A program made the translations under genes and the position numbers. From positions 1 to 44,899 of IMG/VR virus record IMGVR_UViG_3300022538_000532: a stretch of DNA of 44,899 nucleotides. One strand, 5' to 3'. Below are positions 4,658 to 33,336 of the stretch, piece by piece (the first letter of the stretch is position 1; each line of letters starts with the position of its first letter). A model generated the notes under the pieces. It ran no database searches. It saw nothing but the letters and a program-made list of their open reading frames with translations, and had not been told where the DNA came from. The DNA comes from a virus (Duplodnaviria; Caudoviricetes).

Positions 4658-5011
4658 ATGAAAATAATCATAGCAGGAAGTAGAACTTTCTCTAACTATT
4701 CTTTATTCAAGAAAAAAATAGACCAAGTTCTACAAAACATAAAACACCCTGAAATAATTTCCGGTTGCGCTTCTGGCGCTGATTCCCTTGCAATCAAATA
4801 CGCAGTAAAACACGAAATACCCTGCCATAAAATGCCTGCCGATTGGAAAAATTATGGCTTAGCAGCAGGCTATATTAGAAATACCGAAATGGCTGACATT
4901 GCTAATATGCTAATAGCCTTTTGGAATGGTAAATCAAAAGGTACTCGACACATGATAAAAATAGCAAAAGAGAAAAAACTTGAAACTATAATTTTCAATA
5001 CGGAGAAATAA
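4658..5011 (+). CDS. YspA/SLOG-family (DUF2493-like) protein
   Basis: IIIAGSR, IISGCASGAD, ADW..YG.AAG.IRN..M, AFWNG.SKGT motifs. Confidence 0.85.
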   Translation: MKIIIAGSRTFSNYSLFKKKIDQVLQNIKHPEIISGCASGADSLAIKYAVKHEIPCHKMPADWKNYGLAAGYIRNTEMADIANMLIAFWNGKSKGTRHMIKIAKEKKLETIIFNTEK

Positions 5012-5914
5012 ATGTCTAACTTCAACTTAATAAATCCAGAAATAGAAACCCCATCTCCAAAAGCAAAAGGTTTCCTTCCCAAGCGTGAAAACGTACAACT
5101 CGCTTGCCCTGCAAATGATCTTCGCCTTCAAAAAATAGGAGAATTTGTCTTCGCCCAGCCAAAACTGAACGGCGAACGCTGCAGAATAGAATGGATTTCA
5201 GGAAAACCACATTTAATTTCTTCTTATGGAAATGAATTTCAATTCATAGAGCATATCCAAGAAGCTCTCCTCTCTACCCCAATCCATAAAAACGTTCCTT
5301 ATGACGGAGAAATCTATATCCATGGCTGGCCACGAGAAAGAATTGACTCAGCCTTAAGACGAACCAAAAATAGAAACCCTGAAGTAGAAAAACTTCAATT
5401 TCACATTTTTGATATTCAAAGATACGATCACAAGCAAACAATCCGTTATCAAGAACTTCAATACCACAAAAAGTATTTTACAAATCCCCTCTATCTTGTT
5501 CCTACTGACATAATCAGATCACAAGATTGGACAAAAGCAGTAGCAGAATACGTCTCCCAAGACTACGAAGGAGCAATCTTCCGTAATCCCGAAGCCCTAT
5601 ACACCTCAAAGCGTTCAACAAAAATAATGCTTAAATCCAAACCAACTAAAAAAGACGTTTATCTCATCCTCGGAATCGAAGAAGCTATCTCTCAAGAAGG
5701 AGTCCCTAAAGCCATGATAGGTTCCTTCCTTGTAATAGGCGGAGATAATTCCCCCTTCAAAGTCGGTGCAGGAAAACTTTCTCATAAAGAAAGAAAAGCC
5801 CTTTGGCAAAGCAGAAAAATACTTATAGGAAAGAAACTTCTTGTAAAACATGAAGAGTTAAAAACAATAAACAATATACCTATCGCGGCAGTTGCTGTAG
5901 AGGTAATAGTATAA
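5012..5914 (+). CDS. lig: ATP-dependent DNA ligase
   Basis: KLNGER (KxDGxR-like adenylation motif), DGEIY, FHIFD, YEGAIFR, MLKSKP, C-terminal OB-like region. Confidence 0.88.
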   Translation: MSNFNLINPEIETPSPKAKGFLPKRENVQLACPANDLRLQKIGEFVFAQPKLNGERCRIEWISGKPHLISSYGNEFQFIEHIQEALLSTPIHKNVPYDGEIYIHGWPRERIDSALRRTKNRNPEVEKLQFHIFDIQRYDHKQTIRYQELQYHKKYFTNPLYLVPTDIIRSQDWTKAVAEYVSQDYEGAIFRNPEALYTSKRSTKIMLKSKPTKKDVYLILGIEEAISQEGVPKAMIGSFLVIGGDNSPFKVGAGKLSHKERKALWQSRKILIGKKLLVKHEELKTINNIPIAAVAVEVIV

Positions 5915-6683: not shown

Positions 6684-6712
6684 TTGACATCTTGATTTTA
6701 ATAACGTATAAT
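6684..6712 (+). promoter_or_regulatory. Perfect consensus sigma70 promoter
   Basis: TTGACA-17 nt-TATAAT. Confidence 0.85.
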
Positions 6713-6794: not shown

Positions 6795-7250
6795 ATGGCG
6801 AAGAAAACAGAGGAAGCAAAGGGAGTAGAAGTAGAAGTAGAAACAAAGGGAGTAGAAGTAACGGAAACTGTATCAAAGAGAGCAAAGAAATTGTCAAAGA
6901 CAGTTAATTACAACAATAGCACTATCACCATTGAAGCACTCGGCGGTAAAAATGGTGCTGTAACCTATGCCTTTACAGATTTGCCCGAAACAATCCAGGC
7001 TAAATTCGGCCCATTCGGTCTCTCCCATAAACTCGGCGACGCAGCTGCAGGCAAAACGGGTATTGAAGCTGAGGAAGCAGTCCTTAAAGTATTCGAAGGT
7101 CTCAAAAATGGAGAATGGTCAGTTCGTGCTCCAGCAAAGCCAAAGGTATCTGTAAATAAAATCCTGGATAACTACAAAAACCTCGATCCATTACAGCAAA
7201 AGGCCGCTGCCAAACTTCTCGAGGATCTCGGTATTACACTGCCGGCATAA
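6795..7250 (+). CDS. Hypothetical phage protein (GLxxKL family; paralog of 43900)
   Basis: Start moved to MAKKTEE (AAGGAG RBS; the track's ATG overlaps the -10 box). Confidence 0.8.
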   Translation: MAKKTEEAKGVEVEVETKGVEVTETVSKRAKKLSKTVNYNNSTITIEALGGKNGAVTYAFTDLPETIQAKFGPFGLSHKLGDAAAGKTGIEAEEAVLKVFEGLKNGEWSVRAPAKPKVSVNKILDNYKNLDPLQQKAAAKLLEDLGITLPA

Positions 7251-7351
7251 GTACAGCCCATGTTAATTTCCTCTCCTATTGGTTATAGTGAAGAAATCAT
7301 GGTTTGCATTATTTTCGTTCTAAGGTGGGTCTAACCAACCCACCTATTTAT

Positions 7352-7466
7352 GGAAGCAGTGGCGGAATTGGTAGACGCTAAAAGTATGCGGAAGAGAAGA
7401 GATAGGAATTGGCTGCCACCGCTTTAAGCTTACCTATCATACAGGTTCGAATCCTGTCTGCTTCCA
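7352..7466 (+). ncRNA. tRNA-like RNA 1 (Leu-type D arm, T arm, 8-bp acceptor stem; no canonical anticodon arm, ~60-nt insert)
   Basis: GGAAGCAG...CTGCTTCC-A stem; TGGCGGAATTGGTAGACGC; ACAGG-TTCGAAT-CCTGT. Confidence 0.8.
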
Positions 7467-7481
7467 TCTTAAACAAAATAT

Positions 7482-7613
7482 GGAAGCAGTGGCGGAATTG
7501 GTAGACGCTTAGTTATGTCGTAAATTGAGTACTGTCCACGCCGAAAGGTTCTGAGTAAGTTAAGTGGAGGTCGCCTAATCTCAATATGCAGGTTCGAATC
7601 CTGTCTGCTTCCA
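7482..7613 (+). ncRNA. tRNA-like RNA 2 (same scaffold, unrelated ~77-nt structured insert)
   Basis: Identical 5' 31 nt and near-identical 3' 40 nt to copy 1; insert has ATTGAG/CTCAAT, TCCAC/GTGGA and CC-GAAA-GG helices. Confidence 0.8.
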
Positions 7614-7627
7614 TCTTAAACAAAACA

Positions 7628-7647
7628 AAGAAAAGTCAATAAATGAC
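7628..7647 (+). promoter_or_regulatory. Dispersed 20-bp motif, copy 5
   Basis: AAGAAAAGTCAATAAATGAC, intergenic. Confidence 0.75.
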
Positions 7648-7706
7648 TACCTTGCTGAAACTAAAAGCAAGTAAAATAAAATAAAACTAAACAAAGAGAA
7701 ACTAAA

Positions 7707-8702
7707 ATGAAAAACGAAAATGATTCAAACCTCCTCAGAATTGATAATACTAAACGCAGTGAATTCGTTCGCTGTCCTCAAAAATATTTCCTTAATTACA
7801 TCAAAAATATCAGACCATTAACAGGTTCCTCTGCCCTTCGTTATGGCTTAGTTTGGCACGATGGTCTTGATGCTTATTATTCAGAAATTCAAAAAAACGG
7901 TTGGACAAAATCAGGAAAAGAAATAACCTCTGCTCTTGTCACCATGAAAAAGTCATGGGACGAAGAATCTGCAAAATGTACTTATTGGAATGATTACAGA
8001 ACTTTAGAAAACTGTATTCAATCGTTTATTTCTTATGTAGATCATTTTGCTTATGACTGTGGAATGATGGAGATAATCGAAACAGAAGCTCCTTTTAAAA
8101 TTTACATAAATCCTTATGAAGATGATAATATAATAGGAAATTTTCCTGGTATAGAACCATTTTATTTCACAGGCAAACGTGATCTCCTTATTAAACTCAA
8201 CGGCAGAACCTGGCTTGCAGAACATAAAACCACCGGCCAACCTCTTTTCAAACAAACAGAACGTCTCAACCGCTCAGCACAGATAAAAGGTTATACCTAC
8301 GCAGGAATTAAAGAAGCCGAAAAAAATGGAACCGAACCTCCTGAAGGAGTCTTAGTTAATTTCCATCATCTTTCTGCGTATAAATCTAGAAGCAAAGATC
8401 CTGCAAAAGCAGGAAAATATGGAAAACCTAAAATAGACTTCCAAAGAGATGTGCAGATATTTACTGAAGATGATATAAAAGCCTGGAAATTTTCCTTCTT
8501 ATTTACTACTTGGCAAATACAACACTGTCATGAAACAGGAGTTTTCCCAAAACAAGATGATTCGTGTTATACTTACGGACGTTGTGCTTATTCAAATCTC
8601 TGTGATCAGAATAGACCGTTTGATGAACTTAATCTTGAAGGTTATTATATCGGAGAAGCTTGGGAAGTAGCAAAAGAACTTGAAAAGGAGAATAAAGGAT
8701 GA
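7707..8702 (+). CDS. PD-(D/E)XK exonuclease, Cas4/AddB-like
   Basis: RCPQKY, G..WH, GKRD...EHKT, Q..GY, C-terminal SC...RC.....C (four-Cys Fe-S staple pattern). Confidence 0.85.
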   Translation: MKNENDSNLLRIDNTKRSEFVRCPQKYFLNYIKNIRPLTGSSALRYGLVWHDGLDAYYSEIQKNGWTKSGKEITSALVTMKKSWDEESAKCTYWNDYRTLENCIQSFISYVDHFAYDCGMMEIIETEAPFKIYINPYEDDNIIGNFPGIEPFYFTGKRDLLIKLNGRTWLAEHKTTGQPLFKQTERLNRSAQIKGYTYAGIKEAEKNGTEPPEGVLVNFHHLSAYKSRSKDPAKAGKYGKPKIDFQRDVQIFTEDDIKAWKFSFLFTTWQIQHCHETGVFPKQDDSCYTYGRCAYSNLCDQNRPFDELNLEGYYIGEAWEVAKELEKENKG

Positions 8703-8902: not shown

Positions 8903-9105
8903 TGAAAACTTGGATAATAGAAAGAACAAATCATATTGGTCATATTGAAATTAATGCAGATTTTATAACAACAGACAACGCTTGTCTCATACTCTGCAAT
9001 AAAGCTAATGCTCCTGAGGATAGAGGAATTGTACTTGCAGTTTTTGCCTCACATACTTGGTCTTCGATAAAACTCAAAGAGGAGAATATTCCTACCAATG
9101 CCTAA
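8902..9105 (+). CDS. Hypothetical protein
   Basis: 67-aa ORF, AAGGAG RBS, TAATG coupling. Confidence 0.65.
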   Translation: MKTWIIERTNHIGHIEINADFITTDNACLILCNKANAPEDRGIVLAVFASHTWSSIKLKEENIPTNA

Positions 9106-9838
9106 ATCAGCAAAAGACGTAACAATCTCAAATCAAACTTTAAAGACAATGGTAATCGGAGACTTCGGATCAGGTAAATCAGCTTTCGCTAATACCTGCC
9201 CGACAAAAGGATACGTCTTCGATTTTGATAAAGGAATTTTAATATACAGAGGAGGTGATTGGGATTACGAACAATTTGAAACCAGTGGCAAAGGTTGGCT
9301 CCATTTTGAAAAAGAATTTAGAGAAGTAACTAAAGCTATAACAGAAAAGAAATATAAAACTGTCATAGTAGATTCTACTACAACAATGACTGATATGGCT
9401 ATGGAAAGAGCAATGCAGTTAGATCCTAAACGCTCTCCAACCGGCGGACCACTATGGAATGTCCACTACCAAATAGTCAAGAATTTAATGGAGCCTAAAA
9501 TCAGACAGTTAATGCAGCTTAACTGCAATATCGTTTTAATTTCTCATCAAGCAGTAACACAAGATCAAGAAACTGGAGCTATTCTCTCCATAGATCCTAT
9601 GCTTACAGGACAATTATCACAAAAAGTTCCTGGTTATTTCGATGAAGTTTACTACGCCTTTACTCGTACCGTTCAAGGAAAAACAAAATACTTTCTCAGA
9701 ACTGTAACCAAAGGACTTTATAAAGCACGAAGTAGAATTTCAGGCGTCCAAAGAATTATGCCAGATGAAATTCCAAATGACTATAATGAGGTTTTAAAAT
9801 ACATTAAAAAGGAGAACAAAAAAGAAACAAAAACTTAA
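9098..9838 (+). CDS. AAA_24 / Sak4-like P-loop ATPase (recombinase)
   Basis: Walker A GDFGSGKS, FDFDKG, Walker B VIVDS, LISH; lies between nuclease and SSB. Confidence 0.8.
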   Translation: MPKSAKDVTISNQTLKTMVIGDFGSGKSAFANTCPTKGYVFDFDKGILIYRGGDWDYEQFETSGKGWLHFEKEFREVTKAITEKKYKTVIVDSTTTMTDMAMERAMQLDPKRSPTGGPLWNVHYQIVKNLMEPKIRQLMQLNCNIVLISHQAVTQDQETGAILSIDPMLTGQLSQKVPGYFDEVYYAFTRTVQGKTKYFLRTVTKGLYKARSRISGVQRIMPDEIPNDYNEVLKYIKKENKKETKT

Positions 9839-11479: not shown

Positions 11480-12796
11480 ATGGAAATGATTTTTATAGAC
11501 ACAACAAAAATAACAGTACGTAAAGGACTGGAACGTTTTCGAAAAGATATGGGAGAATTAAATGCGTTAGTAGATTCTATTAAACGTACTCGGCAAATTG
11601 TGCCTATTATAATAACGAGAGATTATGAATTAATTGCTGGGGGTAGACGATTAGCTGCTTGCACATTATTAGGTATTCAAGTAAAAGTAGTTTTTGAGGA
11701 TGTAACTAATGACTGGGAAATGAGATCTCTTGAACTCGAAGAAAATTTATACAGAAAAGATTTTACTCCTGCTGAACAAGTTACAGCCACTCAAGAATTA
11801 CACGAATTAAAGCAGCGTATTCACGGCGAATCTTGCTCAGGAAAAGCAGGTTCAGGATGGACGCTTGACGATACAGCTAAAGTTCTTGGTAAGTCCCGCG
11901 GTGCAATAATAGCTGATATGCAACTTGCAGATATGGTAAAAGCTTTTCCTGAACTAAAAGGAGCCAAAAAGAAAAGTGAGATAAAAAAGGCTGCGAAGTC
12001 TTTAGAAAGAGTCAATGATGCTCTTGGTTCTCTTGTTAAACATCAAGAAGCAATTAAAGAAAAGAAAGATCTTTTTATTCTTCAACATAAAAAAGCAGAG
12101 GAATTTCTTCCTTCTTTAGAAGCCAATTCAATAGATTGTTTCATTGCAGATCCTCCTTATGGTATAGAAATTTATGAAATTCTTACTGGCATTGGAGGCA
12201 AAACAGGAAATGAATTAACAGCCGGAGGTTTTCAATACGATGATTCTTTTCCGAAGGCTTTAGCTTTTTATCAATTTCTTGCCTCTGAACTTTATCGTAT
12301 AACTACTGATAAAACTCATGGATATATATTCTTCGGGCCAGAATATTACAAAGAAGTACGAGAAATATTTATTAAAGCAGATTTTCGAGTTCATGTCAAA
12401 CCAATTATCTGGATTAAAAATACAACGGGACAATGTAATGTTCCTTCAGCCTGGCCAAGTAGTTGTTACGAAATGTGTCTCTATATAAGAAAAGATAATT
12501 CTCGTTTAGTTCAAGAAGGTAAATCCGATTGGCTTCATATTCCGCCATTAAATCCAAGCCAAAAAATTCATGATGCAGAAAAACCTGTTAAACTCTATAA
12601 ACAACTTCTTGAAAGAATTTCTTTTCCAGGATATAAATTCCTCGATCCCTGCTGCGGTTCAAGCTCGTCATTAGAGGCAGCTTTAGAATTAAAAATGTTC
12701 GCTATAGGATGCGAGAAAAATCAAGCCGCTTATGCTTCTTCACTAAATAGATTAGCTAATTTAAAGGTATCTAATGAGAAGACTCTGGACAACTAA
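11480..12796 (+). CDS. ParB-domain / N6-N4 DNA methyltransferase fusion
   Basis: ParB: PIII...LIAGGRRL, ELEENL.R, then HTH; MTase: ADPPY, IIWIK, H..EKP, LDPCCGS. Confidence 0.85.
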   Translation: MEMIFIDTTKITVRKGLERFRKDMGELNALVDSIKRTRQIVPIIITRDYELIAGGRRLAACTLLGIQVKVVFEDVTNDWEMRSLELEENLYRKDFTPAEQVTATQELHELKQRIHGESCSGKAGSGWTLDDTAKVLGKSRGAIIADMQLADMVKAFPELKGAKKKSEIKKAAKSLERVNDALGSLVKHQEAIKEKKDLFILQHKKAEEFLPSLEANSIDCFIADPPYGIEIYEILTGIGGKTGNELTAGGFQYDDSFPKALAFYQFLASELYRITTDKTHGYIFFGPEYYKEVREIFIKADFRVHVKPIIWIKNTTGQCNVPSAWPSSCYEMCLYIRKDNSRLVQEGKSDWLHIPPLNPSQKIHDAEKPVKLYKQLLERISFPGYKFLDPCCGSSSSLEAALELKMFAIGCEKNQAAYASSLNRLANLKVSNEKTLDN

Positions 12797-20202: not shown

Positions 20203-20229
20203 GAGGGGCATAAGCCCCTCCCTTTTCTT
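20203..20229. terminator. Terminator between the convergent arms
   Basis: GAGGGGC-ATAA-GCCCCTC flanked by A-rich and T-rich tracts. Confidence 0.75.
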
Positions 20230-23200
20230 AATGCCCCATTCCCTTCGCAGGAACTCCAAAGATATACATCAAAGGAGAATCCTTATATATCTTAGGAATA
20301 TCCCTTTCAGAAATCCTTAAAGCCTTCTTCACTACAGTCGGCATAGGTCCTGTAGATTTAAGATAATCCTGTAAAAAAGTATTTACTGGAAACATATCAT
20401 GATCCTTACCAAAAGGTTCTTGGATAGTCCTTGCAGTACTTTGAAAGATAGGACTTAAGTGCAACTCCGCTGTATCCTCCATTGTAACAAAAGGTAAATG
20501 CACAGAATGCGGTTTAAAATTAACTCCTACCATACTACCTCCTCCAATAACAGCTCCAGTATAAAGAATCTCCCTCATAAATTGCTGACTTAAACTCGTC
20601 CCAAAAACATCTGCTTCTTGATTCAAAGCATCCCGAATTAAATTTCCTTTCATACTTCCTTCAGCTTTCCAGATATAACTTCGAAGATCATACAAATCCT
20701 TAAGTGTCTTATTTACATCCTGCTCTTTAATTACTCCCCAAGCTCCCTTAACTGACTTACCAAAAGCCCTTCCGTGAAGAAGTCTCCTTTCAAGAATCTT
20801 AAACGGCGTAGCTTGAAACAACATCAAAGCTCTTACCTTAGGATTCCTTAACCATCTTGGACTTAAATTCCCTCCTAAAAAGTTATTCTTAAGTATCGCA
20901 GAGTAAATTGCATTACTCGCCTGTACTCCAGTCATTCCTTTTCTCGCTGCCATTTCTGTCGCTGCCAGAACTGTATGCGTCCGGTCAAAACTTTCTATCA
21001 TCTGCATTGGAATAGAGCCTTTTTTGTTTATGTATTCCAGACTCTTATCAAACCAACTCTCAAAAGCTCCTCTATTACTAACCATTTCTCGGACATCCAT
21101 ATCAGCTAAATAACCTAAATGCCTACTCTGAAGTGTAAAAGATTTAACTGTATCATCTATAAAATGCTTCTCAGTTCCAGGATTTATTCCCAACTTCCTA
21201 ATCAACATTCCTGCAGCAGGATCATTCCTCCAATTCCTCACAGTCACCTCAAAACTTTCCTTCACATGACTCAAACTTTCCTTAGCTCCAAATGTCGCAT
21301 ACGTTCCGGTCAATTTAAATAAATGCTTAAAGGCACTACTTGGATTCATAAACAAAAATCTCATTACTTCAAAAGCAGAATATCTATTCGCCAGTCTATT
21401 CGTCGCGGTATCCTCAAATGGCTTCATTCCTTCTTCTATTCCATCCCAGAAATTCTTTAGTTCAGGATTACTTCTAATTACCGCCGAATTTTTATGTGCA
21501 TGCCAAGACGTAGTTTTATTTCCTTTATCCCAGAACTTAGTTACTTGAATTCTATGCTCTATATCTGGAATATATTTACTCATATTATATCCAACATCTG
21601 GAATCATCTGTTTCGAGTATTTAGTTCTTCTGTGAAATTTAGCAAAAGGAACTGAATCAGGAGCATTAATCCCAGTTGATTCCAAAACCTTTTCTGCATT
21701 CTCCTTAATCCATTTCGGATGAAAAGCATGATGCATAAAAGGTCTGTCAGTTTTAATTTCCTGTCCTACTTCCAGAAGCCTTCTTCCATATTCCTCATTA
21801 AAAACCTTCAGTCTTTTAACAGCAAGTTTCTCTTCAGAAGTAATAACTTCCTTCAACCAAGGATAATTAATAAAATCCTCAGTATCCTCAGCCGCAAGCG
21901 AAATCCTCGTACTCGAATATCTCCCCGCAAGTATCTTAATTTTACTTTCATATTCAGTATTAAACTTTTCAAACTCAGGCATTAACTTCTTTCTAGATTC
22001 TTTAAGATTTTCTAACTGCCCCTCAAGAGTATCAATAGAAATTATTCTTCTCTTTCCTTTTCCAAGTTTTCTTTCTAACTTCTTAATACTTTCTATTCTC
22101 TTTTCTAACTGCCCTATATGCTTATCCACTGCACTTAATGCCGTAACTGATCCTGAATACTTCTCAGCCAGTCCTTCCATTTCAGCAGAAATTGCCCTCG
22201 TTACCTTTCCGTCCAAACTTCCCGGAACTTCATTTAGGATATTCTTCAATACTGTCTGCCCATTCATTACATTCCCAGTAATAACTCCCTGCATCATAGC
22301 TAATTCAGGAACTGGCCCCATTCCACTTTTATAATAAATCTGCTCCTGAGTAAAAGGACTCATAAACTTAGCCATCCCTCCAAAGATACTTTTAGTTGCC
22401 TTTACTGCATCATTTAATTTAACTCCAGCATCAGTAACAGCTTTCGCTGTACTCATAACCCGCATTTCTTTTGGAAGAGTAAAAGGATTAGCTGGATCAA
22501 TCTCTCTTAATATAGCATCATTCTCTACAAACTCTTTAATCAATTTATCCTTAGCTTTTCCACTCCCTTCAACCGCTGCTTTAAACATCTTAGGAACTAA
22601 CAACTTTCCAACTGAACTTAATGTCCCTGCCTCTGCTTCATCAGGAGAAAGTAAACTTGCCAACGGAACTAATGTAGCTCCTAAAACAATACTCTTAAAA
22701 ACATCCAGCGAATCTCTCGCCCTTCCTTCTTTAGTAACTTTCGCTCCTTTTATATCTCTTTTATTAGCTATATCAGCTTCTCTCTTAAGACTTTTTAAAA
22801 ACGTTTCTTCTTTAACCTCAAAAGCAGCCTGCTTAAATAATTCAAAAGGACTTAACTCTTCTTCAATAATCTTTCCTACATCACTCCCACTAACTACCGC
22901 AGGAATTTCCTCAACTCCCTCTTCCATATTCTTAAGTAACGTTCCTTCTTCTATCTTAACTCTCTTCGCAGAAATGTCAATTTTTGATGTCGTTACTTGA
23001 ATTGATTCTGAGACTTTTGGTTTAGGAATTTTCTTTAAAAGAAATTCTTCTTTGCTTGCTTTGTCTGTAATTCGATTTAATCTTGCAGCATTAGCACTAT
23101 CGATAAAGTCATCTGTAATATCTTTTCCTATAAGATATTCTCTATTTCTTAAGGTCATCATAACTTTTTCTGCTGCAGTAATAGGAGGTAAACCTTCTTT

Positions 23201-24730
23201 CTTTCTTAGTTTATTAGCTAAAGTATTCGCTCGGGATTTAAGCATTTTATCTACTAAGTTACTTGCGTATCCTTTACCTACAAGATATTCTTTATTTTTT
23301 AAGTTAATAATTATCTTCTTTTGTTCTGCAGATAACTGCTCAAATCTATAAGCAAAATCAATATCTTCTCGCTTAGTAATTTCTTTTTCTATAAGTTTTT
23401 CCTGCTCAAATTTTTTCATGGACTTATGAATGCCTACTACATCAGCATCACGAAGGATTCTTTCTGTCTCTTCTTCAGTTGCATTAGTAAATAAACTTTT
23501 AAATTGTTTTGGATCTGAACGATACCAATCGTCAGAAGTAGACTTTGCAAGTTCTCTTGAAATAATATCTCTTGGAGCTATTGGTTCTTTAGGAGTTACT
23601 CTTTTTGCAAATTCCTTTGCTTGTTTAGGATTAGTAGGAATTGATCTTAAAAGTTCTTGTGTTATACTGAAATTCTGTATCTCAGTAAGTCCTTGAAGAG
23701 CTTCAGTTTCTGCATAGGAATCTATACCTAAATGTCTATCATACATTATTCCTTTAGAACCTGGAGTACTTTTTATTTTATCCCAAGCTTCTTTTGTAAT
23801 TCTTTCAGTTCTTTGTGCTTTACCTGCTTTAATAATTTCTTTTGCTTTAGGAAAGAAAGAGAGTTTATTAGTTAATTCTTTAGAGATTCTTCCCGCTTCT
23901 ACTGCGGTAAATAAAACTTTACCTGCTGCTTTTTCTATTCCAACACCCATAGCTATATCAGGAGCAATTTCTAAACCAAGAACTTGAGCTTTATCCAGCA
24001 AAGAATCACTTCCCATATTTGCATTATACCACTCAGTATTTTTAAGTGCTCGTCTTAAAGCATGTCCAGGAACTGCGACTGCCGCTGCAAGTGCACCAAA
24101 AGATACAGCTCCAGGAAGTCCCCCAAAGGCAGCTCCAAGTCCTGCACCAATAGCAGTTTCAGCAGCAATTTGTCCAGGAGAGGCAAAATAACTTATCTTA
24201 CTTCTTTCTCCTTTTTCAATTGCTTTTGTCGCTTCAAGCCATTGATCATAACCAACAGGTTTCTTTACATCTGGATCATCAGTATCAAAACCTACGATTT
24301 CAAATAAGGAAGTATCTGCTTCTCTTTTATACCTATTAGATCTTTCTAAACGAGAAACTCCTTCTGCATCCGGTCTTTGCAGTAACTCATTAAATCTTCT
24401 ACCTATTATTTCTTCTTTTGAAAGCTTTTTAAACTCAGGATTCTGAAGATCAGTAAGTAAACTCATCCTGAACTCTTCTCCGAATCCCTCCATAGGATTT
24501 CCACGATTCAGTTTATCAACTGCAGTAGTTTTATCAATTACATCTGTAGGAGGTTTCTTAGTAGAAAGACTTGCAAAGCGAGCATGATCCGAAACTACTT
24601 TATCTAACTTAGAAGGATCAGTAAGAAGTTCTTGTTTCTTCTGTTCTCTCTCCATTCTTGCTCTACGTAAATTTTCAAAGTAATTACTCCGCCTTGGAGC
24701 ACGACTTATCATTTGCTGTGTAATTCCCAT
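20228..24730 (-). CDS. Large internal virion / DNA ejection protein (putative)
   Basis: 1500 aa, last gene of the structural arm, Gly/Ala-rich hydrophobic segments; function inferred from position in podovirus-like genomes. Confidence 0.6.
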   Translation of the reverse strand: MGITQQMISRAPRRSNYFENLRRARMEREQKKQELLTDPSKLDKVVSDHARFASLSTKKPPTDVIDKTTAVDKLNRGNPMEGFGEEFRMSLLTDLQNPEFKKLSKEEIIGRRFNELLQRPDAEGVSRLERSNRYKREADTSLFEIVGFDTDDPDVKKPVGYDQWLEATKAIEKGERSKISYFASPGQIAAETAIGAGLGAAFGGLPGAVSFGALAAAVAVPGHALRRALKNTEWYNANMGSDSLLDKAQVLGLEIAPDIAMGVGIEKAAGKVLFTAVEAGRISKELTNKLSFFPKAKEIIKAGKAQRTERITKEAWDKIKSTPGSKGIMYDRHLGIDSYAETEALQGLTEIQNFSITQELLRSIPTNPKQAKEFAKRVTPKEPIAPRDIISRELAKSTSDDWYRSDPKQFKSLFTNATEEETERILRDADVVGIHKSMKKFEQEKLIEKEITKREDIDFAYRFEQLSAEQKKIIINLKNKEYLVGKGYASNLVDKMLKSRANTLANKLRKKEGLPPITAAEKVMMTLRNREYLIGKDITDDFIDSANAARLNRITDKASKEEFLLKKIPKPKVSESIQVTTSKIDISAKRVKIEEGTLLKNMEEGVEEIPAVVSGSDVGKIIEEELSPFELFKQAAFEVKEETFLKSLKREADIANKRDIKGAKVTKEGRARDSLDVFKSIVLGATLVPLASLLSPDEAEAGTLSSVGKLLVPKMFKAAVEGSGKAKDKLIKEFVENDAILREIDPANPFTLPKEMRVMSTAKAVTDAGVKLNDAVKATKSIFGGMAKFMSPFTQEQIYYKSGMGPVPELAMMQGVITGNVMNGQTVLKNILNEVPGSLDGKVTRAISAEMEGLAEKYSGSVTALSAVDKHIGQLEKRIESIKKLERKLGKGKRRIISIDTLEGQLENLKESRKKLMPEFEKFNTEYESKIKILAGRYSSTRISLAAEDTEDFINYPWLKEVITSEEKLAVKRLKVFNEEYGRRLLEVGQEIKTDRPFMHHAFHPKWIKENAEKVLESTGINAPDSVPFAKFHRRTKYSKQMIPDVGYNMSKYIPDIEHRIQVTKFWDKGNKTTSWHAHKNSAVIRSNPELKNFWDGIEEGMKPFEDTATNRLANRYSAFEVMRFLFMNPSSAFKHLFKLTGTYATFGAKESLSHVKESFEVTVRNWRNDPAAGMLIRKLGINPGTEKHFIDDTVKSFTLQSRHLGYLADMDVREMVSNRGAFESWFDKSLEYINKKGSIPMQMIESFDRTHTVLAATEMAARKGMTGVQASNAIYSAILKNNFLGGNLSPRWLRNPKVRALMLFQATPFKILERRLLHGRAFGKSVKGAWGVIKEQDVNKTLKDLYDLRSYIWKAEGSMKGNLIRDALNQEADVFGTSLSQQFMREILYTGAVIGGGSMVGVNFKPHSVHLPFVTMEDTAELHLSPIFQSTARTIQEPFGKDHDMFPVNTFLQDYLKSTGPMPTVVKKALRISERDIPKIYKDSPLMYIFGVPAKGMGH
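22969..22988 (+). promoter_or_regulatory. Dispersed 20-bp motif, copy 10 (intragenic)
   Basis: CAGAAATGTCAATTTTTGAT. Confidence 0.6.
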
Positions 24731-25394: not shown

Positions 25395-26759
25395 TTATGC
25401 CTCCCCACTGTAATTATAACTAACTCCAAGACTATTAGAAACAGAATTACTATGACTATAACCCTGCGAAAGACTTCTACCATAAGTATCACTAAGATGT
25501 GCACTGGCACTTATTCCAGAAAGTGCGCTTGCCGCTAATTGCGAAGCGATATTAGCGCCAGCTTTAGTAGTTTCAATATTAAGTCCAAGTGCTCCTAAAT
25601 AAGAATTAAGAGTTAACTCCGCTTCTTTTAATGAAAGTTCTGTTCTTGTTCTCTCCTGATCTACCTTACCAAGAAATTCTTTTATCTGCCCATCAAGCAT
25701 AGAAACAGCAACTCTGGTATCAGCTTCATATCCTGCTAATTTAGCAGTATAAATTCTCGCCAAACTTTCTATAATACCAAGTTCACTCTGTACCTGTGCT
25801 CGGTATTTATCAATATCTGCTGAATAAATAGCCGCATTACTTCGATTAGCTTCTGCCTGTGCAGATACTTGAAGCCCTGTAATTTCAACTTCAGTTTTAA
25901 TAACTTCAAGTTTTGCTATTCTTTCCTGAACTTTAGCAGTAAAAATATTAATTAATACCTGAACAGCTGTTTTAGCTGCTTCGAGTGCCCGATTAGAAAC
26001 TGCATTAATATAATCTCTTTCCTGTCCTGAAATCTGAATTCCTGCAGATAAAGAAAACTGTGTTTGTGTCTGAGCAAGTCTTGCCTGTTCAATAGAGATT
26101 TCATAGTTCATTTGATTATTATTTCTATCAATCTCTTCTTGAGTTCTCTGTAATCTTCCTGCTAAAGCTCCTGTAGGTAAATCCCATCCACGAGCAGAAA
26201 AGTATTTCTCAGTCTCTTCATAAAGAGTTTCATTCTGCAATTCCTGTCTTGCTCTTGCTCTACTCCAAATAGCATCCTCTATTTCAGCTCCTAATCCAGT
26301 TCCTCCATTCTGAATCAGATCTAAAAGTTTAACTCCTAAAGCATCTGCGATATCAGAATAAAAAGGAGTCTCCTCAAAATTAAAAGAAGGATTTCCCATT
26401 TCTAAATCTGGAAAAGTAGGAATAGAAATTTCAGGAACTATAATATCATTAATCGCAGGTTTATTAGGAGCAACTGCTGAAATCGAAGTAGAAATATTTG
26501 GATCTTCAGGACGTTGTCCTTCAAGATCACTCCATATATTATCAGGAATTAATTCCTGTTCTGCATATGTAATATCTACTTCCGGCATAGTAGCCGTTGT
26601 AAAAATCTGCCCGAGTAAATCTAAATAATCCTGTGCAGAAGCAAAAGATTCTGTTGCATAATCTTTTGCTAAACTAAATCGCTCATTAACTAAAGCTTCA
26701 GTATCATTAACACCAGGTGTTAATGTCTTTACTGGAACAGCTGCTATAGTTACTGCCAT
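25395..26759 (-). CDS. Putative virion structural protein (long coiled coil)
   Basis: 454 aa; GGTGL...EDAIW.RAR.R segment; structural-arm position. Confidence 0.6.
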   Translation of the reverse strand: MAVTIAAVPVKTLTPGVNDTEALVNERFSLAKDYATESFASAQDYLDLLGQIFTTATMPEVDITYAEQELIPDNIWSDLEGQRPEDPNISTSISAVAPNKPAINDIIVPEISIPTFPDLEMGNPSFNFEETPFYSDIADALGVKLLDLIQNGGTGLGAEIEDAIWSRARARQELQNETLYEETEKYFSARGWDLPTGALAGRLQRTQEEIDRNNNQMNYEISIEQARLAQTQTQFSLSAGIQISGQERDYINAVSNRALEAAKTAVQVLINIFTAKVQERIAKLEVIKTEVEITGLQVSAQAEANRSNAAIYSADIDKYRAQVQSELGIIESLARIYTAKLAGYEADTRVAVSMLDGQIKEFLGKVDQERTRTELSLKEAELTLNSYLGALGLNIETTKAGANIASQLAASALSGISASAHLSDTYGRSLSQGYSHSNSVSNSLGVSYNYSGEA

Positions 26760-26774
26760 ATTACCTCCTAATTA

Positions 26775-28409
26775 TTAACCAATAAAATGCATTTTATCAG
26801 TTTGTTTATACCCTAAAATAATAAAAGATTCAGTACCATCTTCATATGTAGTAACTTCCGTTTCCTGAATAATAACTTTTCCTACTATAGAAGAATCTGC
26901 TATATACAAAGCAGGATCTTGCATGACATTAAGATAAAAATCATCAACAAGAGTATTTACAGCAGATGATAATCCTCTATCTTTAGTAGGATTAAAATAA
27001 TCTACACTTTCAGGATTATCTCCATTATATATATCCCACTTAGCTATTATACCCATCTGAGCATTAGCCGGAGAAGGATTAGTATCATCCCAAGAACATC
27101 CAGCACTTTGTAAAGTACCTGGAATTGCAGGATATTCTGTTGCCATACTTCCTGCCATAGCAAAAGCTATGTATATATGACCTTGCTCAACTTTTGCTAA
27201 ATTCAGAGTAAAACTTCCTCCATTCGGTCCTCCAAGCATTGAAGGCGCACAGTTTCCTCCTGATGTTCCTACTCCAGGATAAGGTATAGTTGGATAACCT
27301 ATCCAATAATCAGATAAATTTGTCAGTAAATTAACTTCAGTTATAGTTCCTAAAGAACAAGTAACTTTATATTCCCTATAATAATTATTATACCAACTTT
27401 GAAATGGCATAACCGCAGTTTCTGGAGTACTTCCATAATCATGATCACTTCCATGTTCACCATAAGTAGTGTATACAGTATGTATATAACCAAAAGAAAA
27501 ATTAAGATCTGTTTGAGTTTCTAATGAAGTTGATCCACCAACTCTACGCCCAAGTTTTTTATAGTCATCAAGTATTTTCGAGGTATATCTACCTGCTTCT
27601 TCAGGATAAGGATCAACATTTAAAAATCTGTATCTTGTTGCTTCAGCAGAATAAGCACAATGCGTTTCTATTAAATCTGAAGCTGATGCATGACAATTTT
27701 GGCTGCAACTAGGAGGAGTAACAAGATTAATAGTATTCGGATATTCCTCATCAATTTCAAATTCTTGTCCTGCACTTTCACTTCCTGAACGATACCTAAA
27801 TCTATATATATCATCTAAATAATCAGAAGAAGTATTCAACCATATACATAAGGGATAATTAGCTCCAGGATTTTTATTTCTTTCATCTCTTAAAATCATT
27901 CCCCAAGGAAGTTCAAAAACTTGTTCTCCTATTTGAATGGGATAAAAAATATCTATATTCCATCTATTAAGCATTTCTACCGGTGTAATCCCTGTAAAAA
28001 TAACAGAATCTATTCCATACTTCCCTTCTATCTTAGGATCAAAAAGCAGCAATCTTTGAGGATTAAATCTTTCAGGATCATAAGCGTATTGTCCGCCTTC
28101 AGTAATACCTTCAGGTCTTTCATATACTCCTAAACCAATAAGAAAAACAGGTCTGTTTACTAATCTCTTTTTAATAACTTTCTTTTCTTCTACTGCAGGA
28201 GCATACGGAGTTTTTATCCAAACAGTATCAATCCCGAATATACTTTCACATACTATCCGACTACCATCAGGATAATCAGTAACTCGACTTAACTGCTTTA
28301 ACTCTTGAAACCTCATAGCATTATACAGAATAAATAACTGCCTATTAGCTTCTCCAATAAGAGTCTTACCTTTATTAATATCTCCAATGAATCTATAACT
28401 TACGGCCAT
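26775..28409 (-). CDS. Putative tail / receptor-binding protein
   Basis: 544 aa; conserved-looking N-terminus followed by a Tyr/Gly/Ser-rich variable region. Confidence 0.5.
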   Translation of the reverse strand: MAVSYRFIGDINKGKTLIGEANRQLFILYNAMRFQELKQLSRVTDYPDGSRIVCESIFGIDTVWIKTPYAPAVEEKKVIKKRLVNRPVFLIGLGVYERPEGITEGGQYAYDPERFNPQRLLLFDPKIEGKYGIDSVIFTGITPVEMLNRWNIDIFYPIQIGEQVFELPWGMILRDERNKNPGANYPLCIWLNTSSDYLDDIYRFRYRSGSESAGQEFEIDEEYPNTINLVTPPSCSQNCHASASDLIETHCAYSAEATRYRFLNVDPYPEEAGRYTSKILDDYKKLGRRVGGSTSLETQTDLNFSFGYIHTVYTTYGEHGSDHDYGSTPETAVMPFQSWYNNYYREYKVTCSLGTITEVNLLTNLSDYWIGYPTIPYPGVGTSGGNCAPSMLGGPNGGSFTLNLAKVEQGHIYIAFAMAGSMATEYPAIPGTLQSAGCSWDDTNPSPANAQMGIIAKWDIYNGDNPESVDYFNPTKDRGLSSAVNTLVDDFYLNVMQDPALYIADSSIVGKVIIQETEVTTYEDGTESFIILGYKQTDKMHFIG

Positions 28410-32698: not shown

Positions 32699-33336
32699 TA
32701 TACATTCCATACACTACTGATATAATGTTGCCTGTTCTTAGCTACCCAAGCTCTTAAATCAGCAATAGCACTAAAAAACTGCCCTTTATGATAATGAGTA
32801 TTTATCTTCTCCCCTTCTATACCATCTTCTATCTCAGTAAAAATCCTTCCTGCAACTCCATGAGCAAATAATCTCTCATGGAGATGAGGAGGAAAATCAC
32901 TTGGCTCATTACTATCTGAACTCAATTCTGAAGGATTCTTATAATAAATAACAGTAAGAGAAGTTGCTGTCGCAGGTACTTTTTGATACCATAAAATATA
33001 TCCTTCAAGAGCTACTGCCTCCACACTTCCACTACTATCAAAATCCGGATAAGCAGTCATTAACGTATCAAGACTCGAGTATATAGTCACAGCTTCTGCG
33101 TTACTCGTAAATACTCTTTTAAGAACCCCAGAAAATCCTCCACTCAATCCAGTAAGAGTAGTATATGCCTGCCCTTCAACAGTATTAACTACATCATAGC
33201 TTTTAAGAGTTGGCAAGTTTACAAGACCAGCCACATAATAAAGCACTTCATTAATGTAGCTATTTATAGCATCATCGGTGTAACTACTATCAGCAATAAA
33301 ACCTTTAATTCTTTCTCTTAACGTACTTAAATTCAT
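32698..33336 (-). CDS. Putative head-tail adaptor
   Basis: L..LR.....I...IN helix start, Y...P..L....EP...P...H pattern; position after capsid genes. Confidence 0.55.
   Translation of the reverse strand: MNLSTLRERIKGFIADSSYTDDAINSYINEVLYYVAGLVNLPTLKSYDVVNTVEGQAYTTLTGLSGGFSGVLKRVFTSNAEAVTIYSSLDTLMTAYPDFDSSGSVEAVALEGYILWYQKVPATATSLTVIYYKNPSELSSDSNEPSDFPPHLHERLFAHGVAGRIFTEIEDGIEGEKINTHYHKGQFFSAIADLRAWVAKNRQHYISSVWNV

Follow-up and report, generated by a model that had tools for sequence, protein, structure and literature searches.

Tandem tRNA-like RNA units with different inserts in place of the anticodon arm in a marine-sediment phage

Introduction

The systems closest to the locus described here are small stable phage RNAs and one engineered design. 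The record of phage T5 annotates RNA1 (NC_005859 30501-30644) and RNA2 (32959-33083) as 'tRNA-like stable RNA with unknown functions', and the roles of RNAC and RNAD of phage T4 were reported as unknown in 2010 and in 2022, in the excerpts available of both papers (PMC3014915, PMC9697503). In the engineered transfer RNA (tRNA) scaffold of Ponchon and Dardel, the acceptor, T and D arms are used and the anticodon stem-loop is the insertion site, and the fusion is processed by cellular enzymes and protected from degradation in E. coli (excerpts of PMC3753655). Here we focused on two tandem tRNA-like units at 7349 to 7625 of IMG/VR record IMGVR_UViG_3300022538_000532, a Caudoviricetes sequence of 44,899 nucleotides (nt; hereafter, the window, meaning this whole stretch). 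Three sequencing runs were listed for this DNA, all of them DNA runs labeled as marine sediment metagenome; two contain the stretch and may be its source, and no RNA run was among those listed.

An earlier note on this DNA had proposed a natural tRNA scaffold with a repeat-variable-repeat layout. The constant frame with different cargo (the insert at the place of the anticodon arm) stands; the likeness to selenocysteine tRNA (tRNA-Sec), the anticodon decoy and the guide against the phage's own genome found no support. We give roughly even chances to the reading that these are two tandem genes for non-decoding 'shell' RNAs derived from leucine tRNA, of the T5 RNA1 type, with exchangeable functional cargo. 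By their frame and layout, the units belong to a large, barely described, covarying phage RNA family.

Two units share one frame and differ in their inserts

Both units were found where the earlier note had placed them, and its account of their anatomy was right as well (positions of all parts in Table 1). The 31-nt 5' blocks (7349-7379 and 7479-7509) match each other at every base, as do the 37-nt 3' blocks (7442-7478 and 7589-7625), which include a 13-nt trailer, ATCTTAAACAAAA; these direct repeats of 31 and 37 nt are spaced 130 nt apart. The middles between the blocks, 62 and 79 nt long, do not align to each other. Frame halves and flanks that are identical around cargos that cannot be aligned suggest that cassette replacement or gene conversion, not point mutation, lies behind the pair.

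Each acceptor stem consists of 7 base pairs (bp), GAAGCAG/CUGCUUC, extended by a G-1:C73 pair and followed by A. Leader and trailer lengthen the precursor acceptor to 10 Watson-Crick pairs (ATGGAAGCAG with CTGCTTCCAT). Both units carry U8 and G9, a D arm of the class II leucine-tRNA type with a 3-bp stem (GCGG-AAUUGGUAGA-CGC), a U directly before the T stem that allows an A15:U48 pair, and the consensus T arm CAGG-UUCGAAU-CCUG. As the earlier note had observed, no 5-bp stem with a 7-nt loop occurs anywhere in either middle, and a 6-bp helix ending 2 nt before the T stem differs in sequence between the units and is still paired (GATAGG/CCTATC in unit 1, ATTGAG/CTCAAT in unit 2). Separately, cargo 1 holds a purine-only run, GAAGAGAAGAGAUAGGAA, at 7391-7408, and cargo 2 holds GGAGGU at 7567-7572, complementary to the usual 3' end of 16S ribosomal RNA.

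Rfam found two RNA genes in the whole window, both of them these units and both scored as tRNA, and no ordinary tRNA gene. The matches to the Rfam tRNA model RF00005 (scores in Table 1; gathering score 29) cover model positions 1-71 and comprise the acceptor, U8, and the D and T arms, leaving 43 and 72 nt unaligned at the place of the anticodon arm. This unaligned stretch accounts for the silence of ARAGORN, which with default settings made no call on either unit. Since the Rfam match to tRNA runs through the frame only, the refutation which that note had envisaged, a match to a known Rfam family, does not apply.

The frame recurs across a large, mostly viral family

We searched with the pattern GGTAGACGC-N55-85-GGTTCGAATCC, which joins the end of the D arm to the T loop across a gap longer than a normal tRNA allows (65 and 82 nt in the window units). 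An estimated 860 or so IMG/VR stretches carry it. The same pattern gave about 190 stretches in 185,579 cellular genomes, much rarer than in viral sequence, and the family 5' half was present in 25 of the 120 cellular matches listed, from scattered phyla. The 120 IMG/VR matches listed of the ~860 gave 105 distinct, fully flanked sequences, to which the two window units were added. Rows entered the family sample if their 5' half was of the family type and 6 or all 7 of the acceptor pairs formed; 80 passed this filter and 27 were dropped, mostly sequences with a hairpin in the D loop or with a broken or replaced acceptor strand.

Across the 80 rows, changes on both sides of a pair were seen at 7/7 acceptor pairs and 3/5 T-stem pairs, with up to five pair types per position. 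Paired cells amounted to 98.0%, against 82.9% in shuffles and 31-40% with slid partners; the pre-filter on acceptor pairs inflates this percentage but not the number of pair types. The tertiary pair A15:U48 was found in 79/80 rows, and the remaining row (1/80) has the compensated G15:C48. G-U pairs in the stems indicate that the RNA is read from the + strand. A covariance model (hereafter, R1) was built from the family, with both window units in its training set.

The inserts carried by this frame are highly diverse, forming 63 clusters among the 80 rows, 35 of them on the single acceptor AGTCAGG. One 197-kb phage has six long copies and one 155-kb phage a tandem pair, and their inserts differ. 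Among the 80 best-flanked loci, a second copy within 400 nt was detected at 5/80 with at least 59 bits, and at 9/80 when weaker long matches (31-42 bits) are included. The earlier note's forecast that further RNAs of this type, bearing different inserts, would be present in IMG/VR agrees with these numbers.

Some members have a second insertion inside the D loop, so the frame tolerates cargo at two sites. A D-loop hairpin before GGUAGA is seen in L015, L020, L029, L035, L061 (= L278 5051-5178), L066, L102 and L105, and UAGCUAAGCUA in the IMG/VR genome G010 is an example. True tRNAs were present within 400 nt in 7 of the 20 loci examined, and a transfer-messenger RNA (tmRNA) near one. The latter, at 1-236 of L025, is a phage-borne tmRNA gene (Rfam 37.4 bits, cut at the locus end) about 150 nt upstream of a family member on a 70-kb IMG/VR contig.

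The 22-nt 3' block of the window has no exact match in IMG/VR or in metagenome contigs, and BLASTN of 7300-7700 against 50,697 phage records gave no match. The same search with family member L040 returned only T-arm matches to tRNA-Gln genes of Enterococcus phages. A full-text literature search, thin in its coverage of subscription journals and not reaching the original T5/T4 RNA papers, found no paper describing the wider family. The excerpts available of a 2023 survey of viral structured RNAs treat tRNA-like candidates in general terms only.

The acceptor end and its possible recognition by synthetases

Across all samples, G-1:C73 occurs on 11 distinct acceptor sequences of the family. In the samples unselected for position 73, the discriminator is mostly A and position -1 mostly U, and G at -1 never accompanies A73. 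Three distinct C73 frames in these samples have G-1 and none (0) another base at that position, while 0/51 non-C73 frames have G-1 (Fisher p = 4e-5); this count is conservative because de-duplication placed two further G-1:C73 cases in a targeted C73 scan. That scan covered the whole collection with only the C at position 73 fixed, giving 32 stretches, of which 16 distinct sequences pass the filter. Ten of the 16 have G-1 and five have U at -1, two of these five being AGTCAGG frames with a one-base deletion, whose apparent C73 is in fact position 74. In the family sample, 75/80 rows have C at position 74.

In bacterial tRNA-His, RNase P cuts one position further upstream than in other tRNAs. 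The base before G-1 is U in 6 of the 11 G-1:C73 acceptors, and U is the usual -1 base of ordinary members, which fits such a shifted cut.

The identity elements for histidine in bacteria are G-1 and C73, and histidyl-tRNA synthetase (HisRS) charges mini- and microhelices that bear them, although the anticodon also contributes to HisRS recognition in vivo (excerpts of PMC9976931). For leucyl-tRNA synthetase (LeuRS) of E. coli, the same excerpts name A15-U48, G18G19 and A20a as essential and A73 as specifying tRNA-Leu identity; for charging, the sequence of the long variable arm is immaterial and the anticodon arm is dispensable. Judged against these elements, most family frames keep the LeuRS identity set, and the window frame has the HisRS-type end instead. 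We therefore predict from sequence that the window RNAs are HisRS substrates and most other family members LeuRS substrates. Synthetase mimicry fits the conserved identity elements.

Comparison with tRNA-Sec, tmRNA and other tRNA mimics

The units do show the 8/5 feature of bacterial tRNA-Sec (a T stem of 5 bp and, with G-1:C73 included, an acceptor of 8 pairs), and the 8-bp acceptor followed by A was correctly described in the earlier note. The likeness to tRNA-Sec that it drew from this does not hold, as the eighth pair is G-1:C73 on a stem of 7 bp, and the D arm is of the leucine type. A tRNA-Sec has a 6-bp D stem with a 4-nt loop and a UCA anticodon arm; the D arm of the units has a 3-bp stem and the loop AAUUGGUAGA, and the tRNA-Sec model RF01852 gave no match at expect values (E) up to 10, so nothing speaks for this class.

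A tmRNA is likewise not supported. ARAGORN -m found none, the third acceptor pair is A:U rather than the G3:U70 of tmRNA, and there is no tag reading frame. The sole tmRNA-type match in Rfam is to permuted tmRNA, at 15.7 bits, and lies across the junction between the units. Y RNA, including YrlA, and skipping-rope-type tRNA mimics had no Rfam match at E up to 10 in 7250-7700. Three tRNA-mimic families are the subject of a 2026 preprint.

What the inserts hold

We considered several roles for the cargos. Two suggestions of the earlier note failed here. For a decoy of anticodon nucleases, anticodon-like hairpins were not found in the window cargos and are not enriched in the family (15/63 cargos against a shuffled mean of 19.1; 4/63 against 3.3 under strict criteria), and the candidate was rejected. 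For a guide or antisense RNA directed at the genome of the phage itself, uninterrupted complementarity reaches 10-11 nt at most, a length that shuffled cargo equals or exceeds, and this was rejected as well.

A pseudoknot common to all cargos was dropped as a general rule, as a crossing helix beats shuffles (p <= 0.05) in just 5/46 clusters, with p values of 0.795 and 0.935 for the window units. It does hold for types such as that of L006, L011 and L182. These three share GAGUACUG and UACUCAAAGCAG, and the two intervening helices differ wholly in sequence and still pair. The members of this pseudoknot-like conserved insert type lie at L006 382-494, L011 387-501 (-) and L182 287-401 (-), and one carrier is in a Flavobacterium metagenome-assembled genome.

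A second T-arm-like hairpin with a GUUCGA-type loop was also observed in the cargos of L011, L048, L056 and L091 and in T5 RNA2 (L121 2660-2784, -); such an RNA would have two tRNA 'elbows'. In an Rfam scan of 20 diverse loci, non-tRNA matches were below threshold and outside the cargos, the exception being in L025, where a weak match to permuted tmRNA reaches from the neighboring tmRNA across the unit.

Gene neighborhood and mobility of the units

The window, about 45 kb long, is a phage genome with genes for DNA polymerase A, primase, ATP-dependent ligase, a PD-(D/E)XK exonuclease, Sak4, portal, terminase and major head protein. The two units lie between an open reading frame (ORF) and the exonuclease gene.

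Table 1 Features at and around the two units (positions in the window; R1, covariance model built from the family)
Feature	Position	Strand	Remarks
Promoter-like site	6684..6712	+	sigma-70 type, TTGACA-17-TATAAT; consensus matches 12/12
Upstream ORF	6795..7250	+	151 amino acids (aa); adjoins the exonuclease gene in two distant relatives too
Stem-loop	7325..7345	+	GGTGGGT-CTAACCA-ACCCACC then TATTTAT; read from sequence; 6 nt before unit 1
Unit 1	7352..7466	+	115 nt; Rfam tRNA 35.7 bits (7353-7465); R1 76.3 bits (R1 training member)
Unit 1: G-1; acceptor 5' strand; U8 G9; D arm	7352; 7353-7359; 7360-7361; 7362-7378		leucine-type D arm
Unit 1: cargo	7379-7440		includes position 26 (7379), helix 7401-7406/7433-7438 and U48 (7440)
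Unit 1: T arm; acceptor 3' strand; C73; A	7441-7457; 7458-7464; 7465; 7466
Trailer	7466..7478	+	identical copy 7613-7625; first two bases pair with leader AT 7350-7351
Unit 2	7482..7613	+	132 nt; Rfam tRNA 34.9 bits (7483-7612); R1 64.8 bits (R1 training member)
Unit 2: G-1; acceptor 5' strand; D arm	7482; 7483-7489; 7492-7508
Unit 2: cargo	7509-7587		includes helix 7524-7529/7580-7585, GAAA-capped hairpin around 7550-7559 and U48 (7587)
Unit 2: T arm; acceptor 3' strand; C73; A	7588-7604; 7605-7611; 7612; 7613		first T-arm pair G-U
PD-(D/E)XK exonuclease gene	7707..8702	+	first gene of the recombination module
Sak4 gene	9098-9838		recombination module

The promoter-like site is the sole strong candidate upstream of the units, with nothing comparable before unit 1, and neither a promoter nor a terminator was called between unit 2 and the exonuclease gene. 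Co-transcription of the units from this site is plausible. The stem-loop ahead of unit 1, which is followed by a weak U tract, was not called in the terminator scan; it could act as a weak terminator or as a hairpin for processing.

The ORF upstream of the units has no family match in PHROG or Pfam. A protein of 145-151 aa lies directly upstream of a recombination exonuclease in three distant phages (window 6795-7250; L122 2-358; L278 2156-2590), and these proteins have in common the motif FGL(S/G)xKLGDAAAG(K/R)(T/S)G...W(S)VR(A/V)P. The window protein is 46% identical to that of L122 and 53% identical to that of L278/G010.

The same gene junction was compared in relatives. A protein search found no exonuclease relatives in IMG/VR and two in metagenome contigs, of which L122 is the useful one; its exonuclease is 42% identical to that of the window. 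The 178-nt gap at the same slot in L122 holds no tRNA-like element by Rfam or R1. The intergenic DNA of L122 and the window is too diverged to be aligned for tracing the insertion boundaries.

G010, an IMG/VR genome of 47,967 bp that is rated complete, is 38% identical to the window in the exonuclease, 50% in Sak4, 39% in the next ORF and 26% in the ligase. The slot is again without a unit, and a single unit is located three genes downstream, directly after the next ORF. This unit has the acceptor AAGUGGG, A73, a D-loop hairpin and another insert, with the 6-bp helix followed by A and U48. The layouts of L122 and G010 indicate that the units are accessory and occupy different gaps within this phage lineage.

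Other parts of the window yielded observations of their own. A YspA/SLOG-family protein (4658-5914; PF10686, E 1.5e-16) is encoded directly before the ATP-dependent DNA ligase gene, and one 438-aa protein (11480-12796) combines a ParB-like N-terminal domain with an N6/N4 DNA methylase. The structural arm has a 1500-aa ORF (20228-24730, -) without a PHROG or Pfam match, and the same is true of a 544-aa ORF near it (26775-28409); a 454-aa ORF (25395-26759) matches only a PHROG of unknown function.

Proposed mechanism

Under the reading of exchangeable cargo on a shell RNA, transcription would start at the promoter-like site at 6684 and run through the stem-loop at 7325-7345, and the units would be excised from the early operon transcript by host tRNA-maturing enzymes. 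RNase P may act on the 5' side of G-1, as it does on tRNA-His precursors. At the other end, trimming would be followed by the addition of CCA, which is proposed because CCA is not encoded. The tRNA fold could then protect the RNA, as in the engineered tRNA scaffold, while the insert would be displayed as the working, exchangeable part. The identical 31-nt and 37-nt frame halves may serve as homology arms for cargo swaps between phages, possibly via the phage's own exonuclease and Sak4 recombination genes. The target of the cargo would be expected to be a host factor, since nothing in the phage genome matches the cargos.

Taken to its full extent, this would be a natural tRNA-scaffold cassette system, with a shell chargeable without an anticodon, hundreds of small RNA effectors, frame halves as homology arms, and the window pair as two host-directed effectors on a histidine-type shell. 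We put this complete version forward tentatively, and would sooner doubt it than rely on it.

Several observations weigh against exchangeable functional cargo. The window cargos fold no better than expected (z -0.33 and +0.97; -0.08 and +0.32 in another run), the 63 family cargos only a little better than dinucleotide shuffles, at a mean z of -0.51, and the helix by the T arm has a mean length of 5.6 bp, compared with 4.8 bp in shuffles. A neutral 'plug' insert would vary freely too. The window cargos have no Rfam family match and no relative among 152 family loci, where only chance matches of 10-12 nt turned up (E >= 0.29).

Further cautions concern the family and the locus. G18-C25 and the T loop were fixed by the search pattern, so their constancy is not independent evidence. 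R1 gives the real tRNA-Leu of T4 36 bits, nearly the score of T5 RNA1; R1 thus measures leucine-tRNA likeness, and membership rests on layout. At the locus, the stem-loop at 7325-7345 may end transcription ahead of the units, and a Pfam scan of the 62 window ORFs revealed no partner protein or tRNA-related enzyme.

Alternative explanations

The strongest competitor is a decoy made of the tRNA upper body, in which the top half and the acceptor end would be a competitor or sink for a host factor that recognizes tRNAs independently of the anticodon, and the insert would be a plug that abolishes decoding. Together with its candidate factors (HisRS or LeuRS, EF-Tu, RNase P, or a defense toxin that modifies tRNA 3' ends), we consider it rather unlikely. 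The conserved parts are those that such factors read, namely the acceptor, A15:U48, and the D and T loops, and the discriminator covaries with position -1, which argues for selection on the acceptor end. No motif is common to the cargos and their folding signal is weak, with none in those of the window; this weak structural signal in the window inserts favors the decoy. Anticodon-like hairpins are absent, so the RNAs cannot interfere with decoding.

What a decoy leaves unexplained is the presence of several copies with unrelated inserts on identical frames, and of insert types conserved with compensatory changes across different frames. For these two reasons we favor a scaffold that carries working inserts. 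The analyses run also linked no defense system or toxin to these RNAs.

The units could instead be processing punctuation, with RNase P and RNase Z cut sites that separate the messages of the upstream ORF and the exonuclease and with the excised RNA as a by-product, of which mascRNA at the 3' end of MALAT1 is an example. The units appear to lie within an operon, lack their own promoter and are followed by no terminator, which would suit this role, and the conserved elements are only those that processing enzymes recognize. One unit would be enough, yet there are two, and relatives have the same gene junction without any. Many members are in tRNA clusters and not between protein genes, as the tRNAs near 7 of 20 loci and the T5 case indicate. 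Moreover, punctuation needs neither leucine or histidine identity elements nor A15:U48. We regard this explanation as improbable.

Decaying or functionless tRNA-Leu pseudogenes with acquired insertions would explain the missing anticodon arm and the lack of structural signal in the window cargos, and IMG/VR and the metagenome contigs gave no close relative in which conservation of this exact pair would show. Decay is hard to reconcile with frames that are identical over 68 nt with every tRNA core position intact, with a family frame that covaries and keeps its tertiary pair in 80/80 rows, or with the annotation of T5 RNA1 as a stable RNA. This origin is very unlikely.

Even less credit is due to decoding tRNAs with short introns whose removal restores an anticodon arm. 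When introns were allowed, ARAGORN did model unit 1 as tRNA-Arg(GCG), placing a 28-nt intron at the canonical 37/38 site, and unit 2 as tRNA-Leu(GAG) with a 36-nt intron. The same -i setting made calls equally on shuffled cargo, 179/200 and 177/200 times, so intron removal restores no meaningful anticodon arm, the outcome by which the earlier note would have been refuted. The 71 family rows with a call spread over 37 anticodon types and 28 intron offsets, and the two window models put the intron at different sites, each of them disrupting the 6-bp helix. We know of no bacterial mechanism that splices tRNA introns of 28-36 nt.

Finally, a DNA-level role for the two direct repeats (31 and 37 nt, 130 nt apart) as attachment, origin or protein-binding sites is barely credible, as the repeats are the halves of a tRNA fold whose stems covary across the family, and its G-U pairs would be A-C mismatches on the other strand.

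Significance

T5 RNA1 has long been annotated, so this kind of RNA is not wholly new. What does appear new from the sequence comparisons is the histidine-type G-1:C73 end that recurs on 11 acceptors, and the absence or relocation of the units in distant relatives. The T5 RNA1 design is also found here in a small marine-sediment phage without ordinary tRNA genes, and for this reason the window RNAs cannot serve to supplement decoding.

The analysis ties this design to a family of hundreds, with one frame, dozens of unrelated inserts and units moving between gene slots. The frame keeps the requirements of LeuRS or, in a recurrent subclass, of HisRS, and both enzymes can charge without reading the anticodon. 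With members in SPP1 and T5, work in standard laboratory systems is possible. If the cassette reading is true, the engineered tRNA scaffold would have a natural precedent in this family, which would also supply compact, cell-stable RNA modules.

Comparison with known systems

T5 RNA1 is alike in its acceptor stem, U8 G9, AAUUGGUAGA D loop, U48 and T arm, and where the anticodon arm would be it has an insert of about 85 nt. Its full length aligns to R1 with 39.6 bits, whereas the true tRNAs of T5 reach at most 24 bits. RNA1 differs in its imperfect acceptor without G-1:C73, and its cargo, like that of RNA2, is unrelated to those of the window. T5 RNA2 has the same CAGGUUCGAAUCCUG T arm as the units and an 8-bp acceptor, but its D region is another one, and the T arm alone matches R1 (16.9 bits). 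The two T5 RNAs are encoded in a large tRNA cluster of a 122-kb coliphage, in contrast to the window phage, which has no tRNA genes.

In SPP1, an unannotated locus (NC_004166 6645-6759, +) matches R1 over its full length (42.4 bits, E 1e-9). It shares the GGCGGAAUAGGUAGACGC D arm and has an insert of about 60 nt, and the phage, at about 44 kb, is similar in size to that of the window. It differs in its discriminator U, 6-bp T stem and UGCAAAU loop, and in being a single copy among head genes. The SPP1 member (L125) lies between genes 9 and 11, where a doubtful 'gene 10' is annotated on the opposite strand; the record notes that the 'gene 10' protein conflicts with its translation.

The species 1 and 2 RNAs of T4 (rnaC and rnaD) are also small stable phage RNAs adjoining tRNA genes, and the 3' end of rnaC holds a consensus T arm. 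Neither has the leucine-type D arm of the units, and R1 matched rnaC partially (20 bits) and rnaD not at all.

The tRNA-like domain of tmRNA and the histidine-accepting structures of plant viruses resemble the units in having a tRNA upper body and synthetase identity elements without a decoding anticodon. Aminoacylatable mimics of this sort include G-1:C73 helices charged by HisRS (excerpts of PMC9976931). The units differ from tmRNA in the features given above (no tmRNA call, G3:U70 or tag reading frame), and the plant-virus structures are the 3' ends of RNA genomes.

The window RNAs have the same design as the engineered tRNA scaffold. That scaffold is man-made and retains a closing anticodon stem, whereas the natural cargos are mostly attached by a single-stranded 5' linker and a helix at the place of the variable arm.

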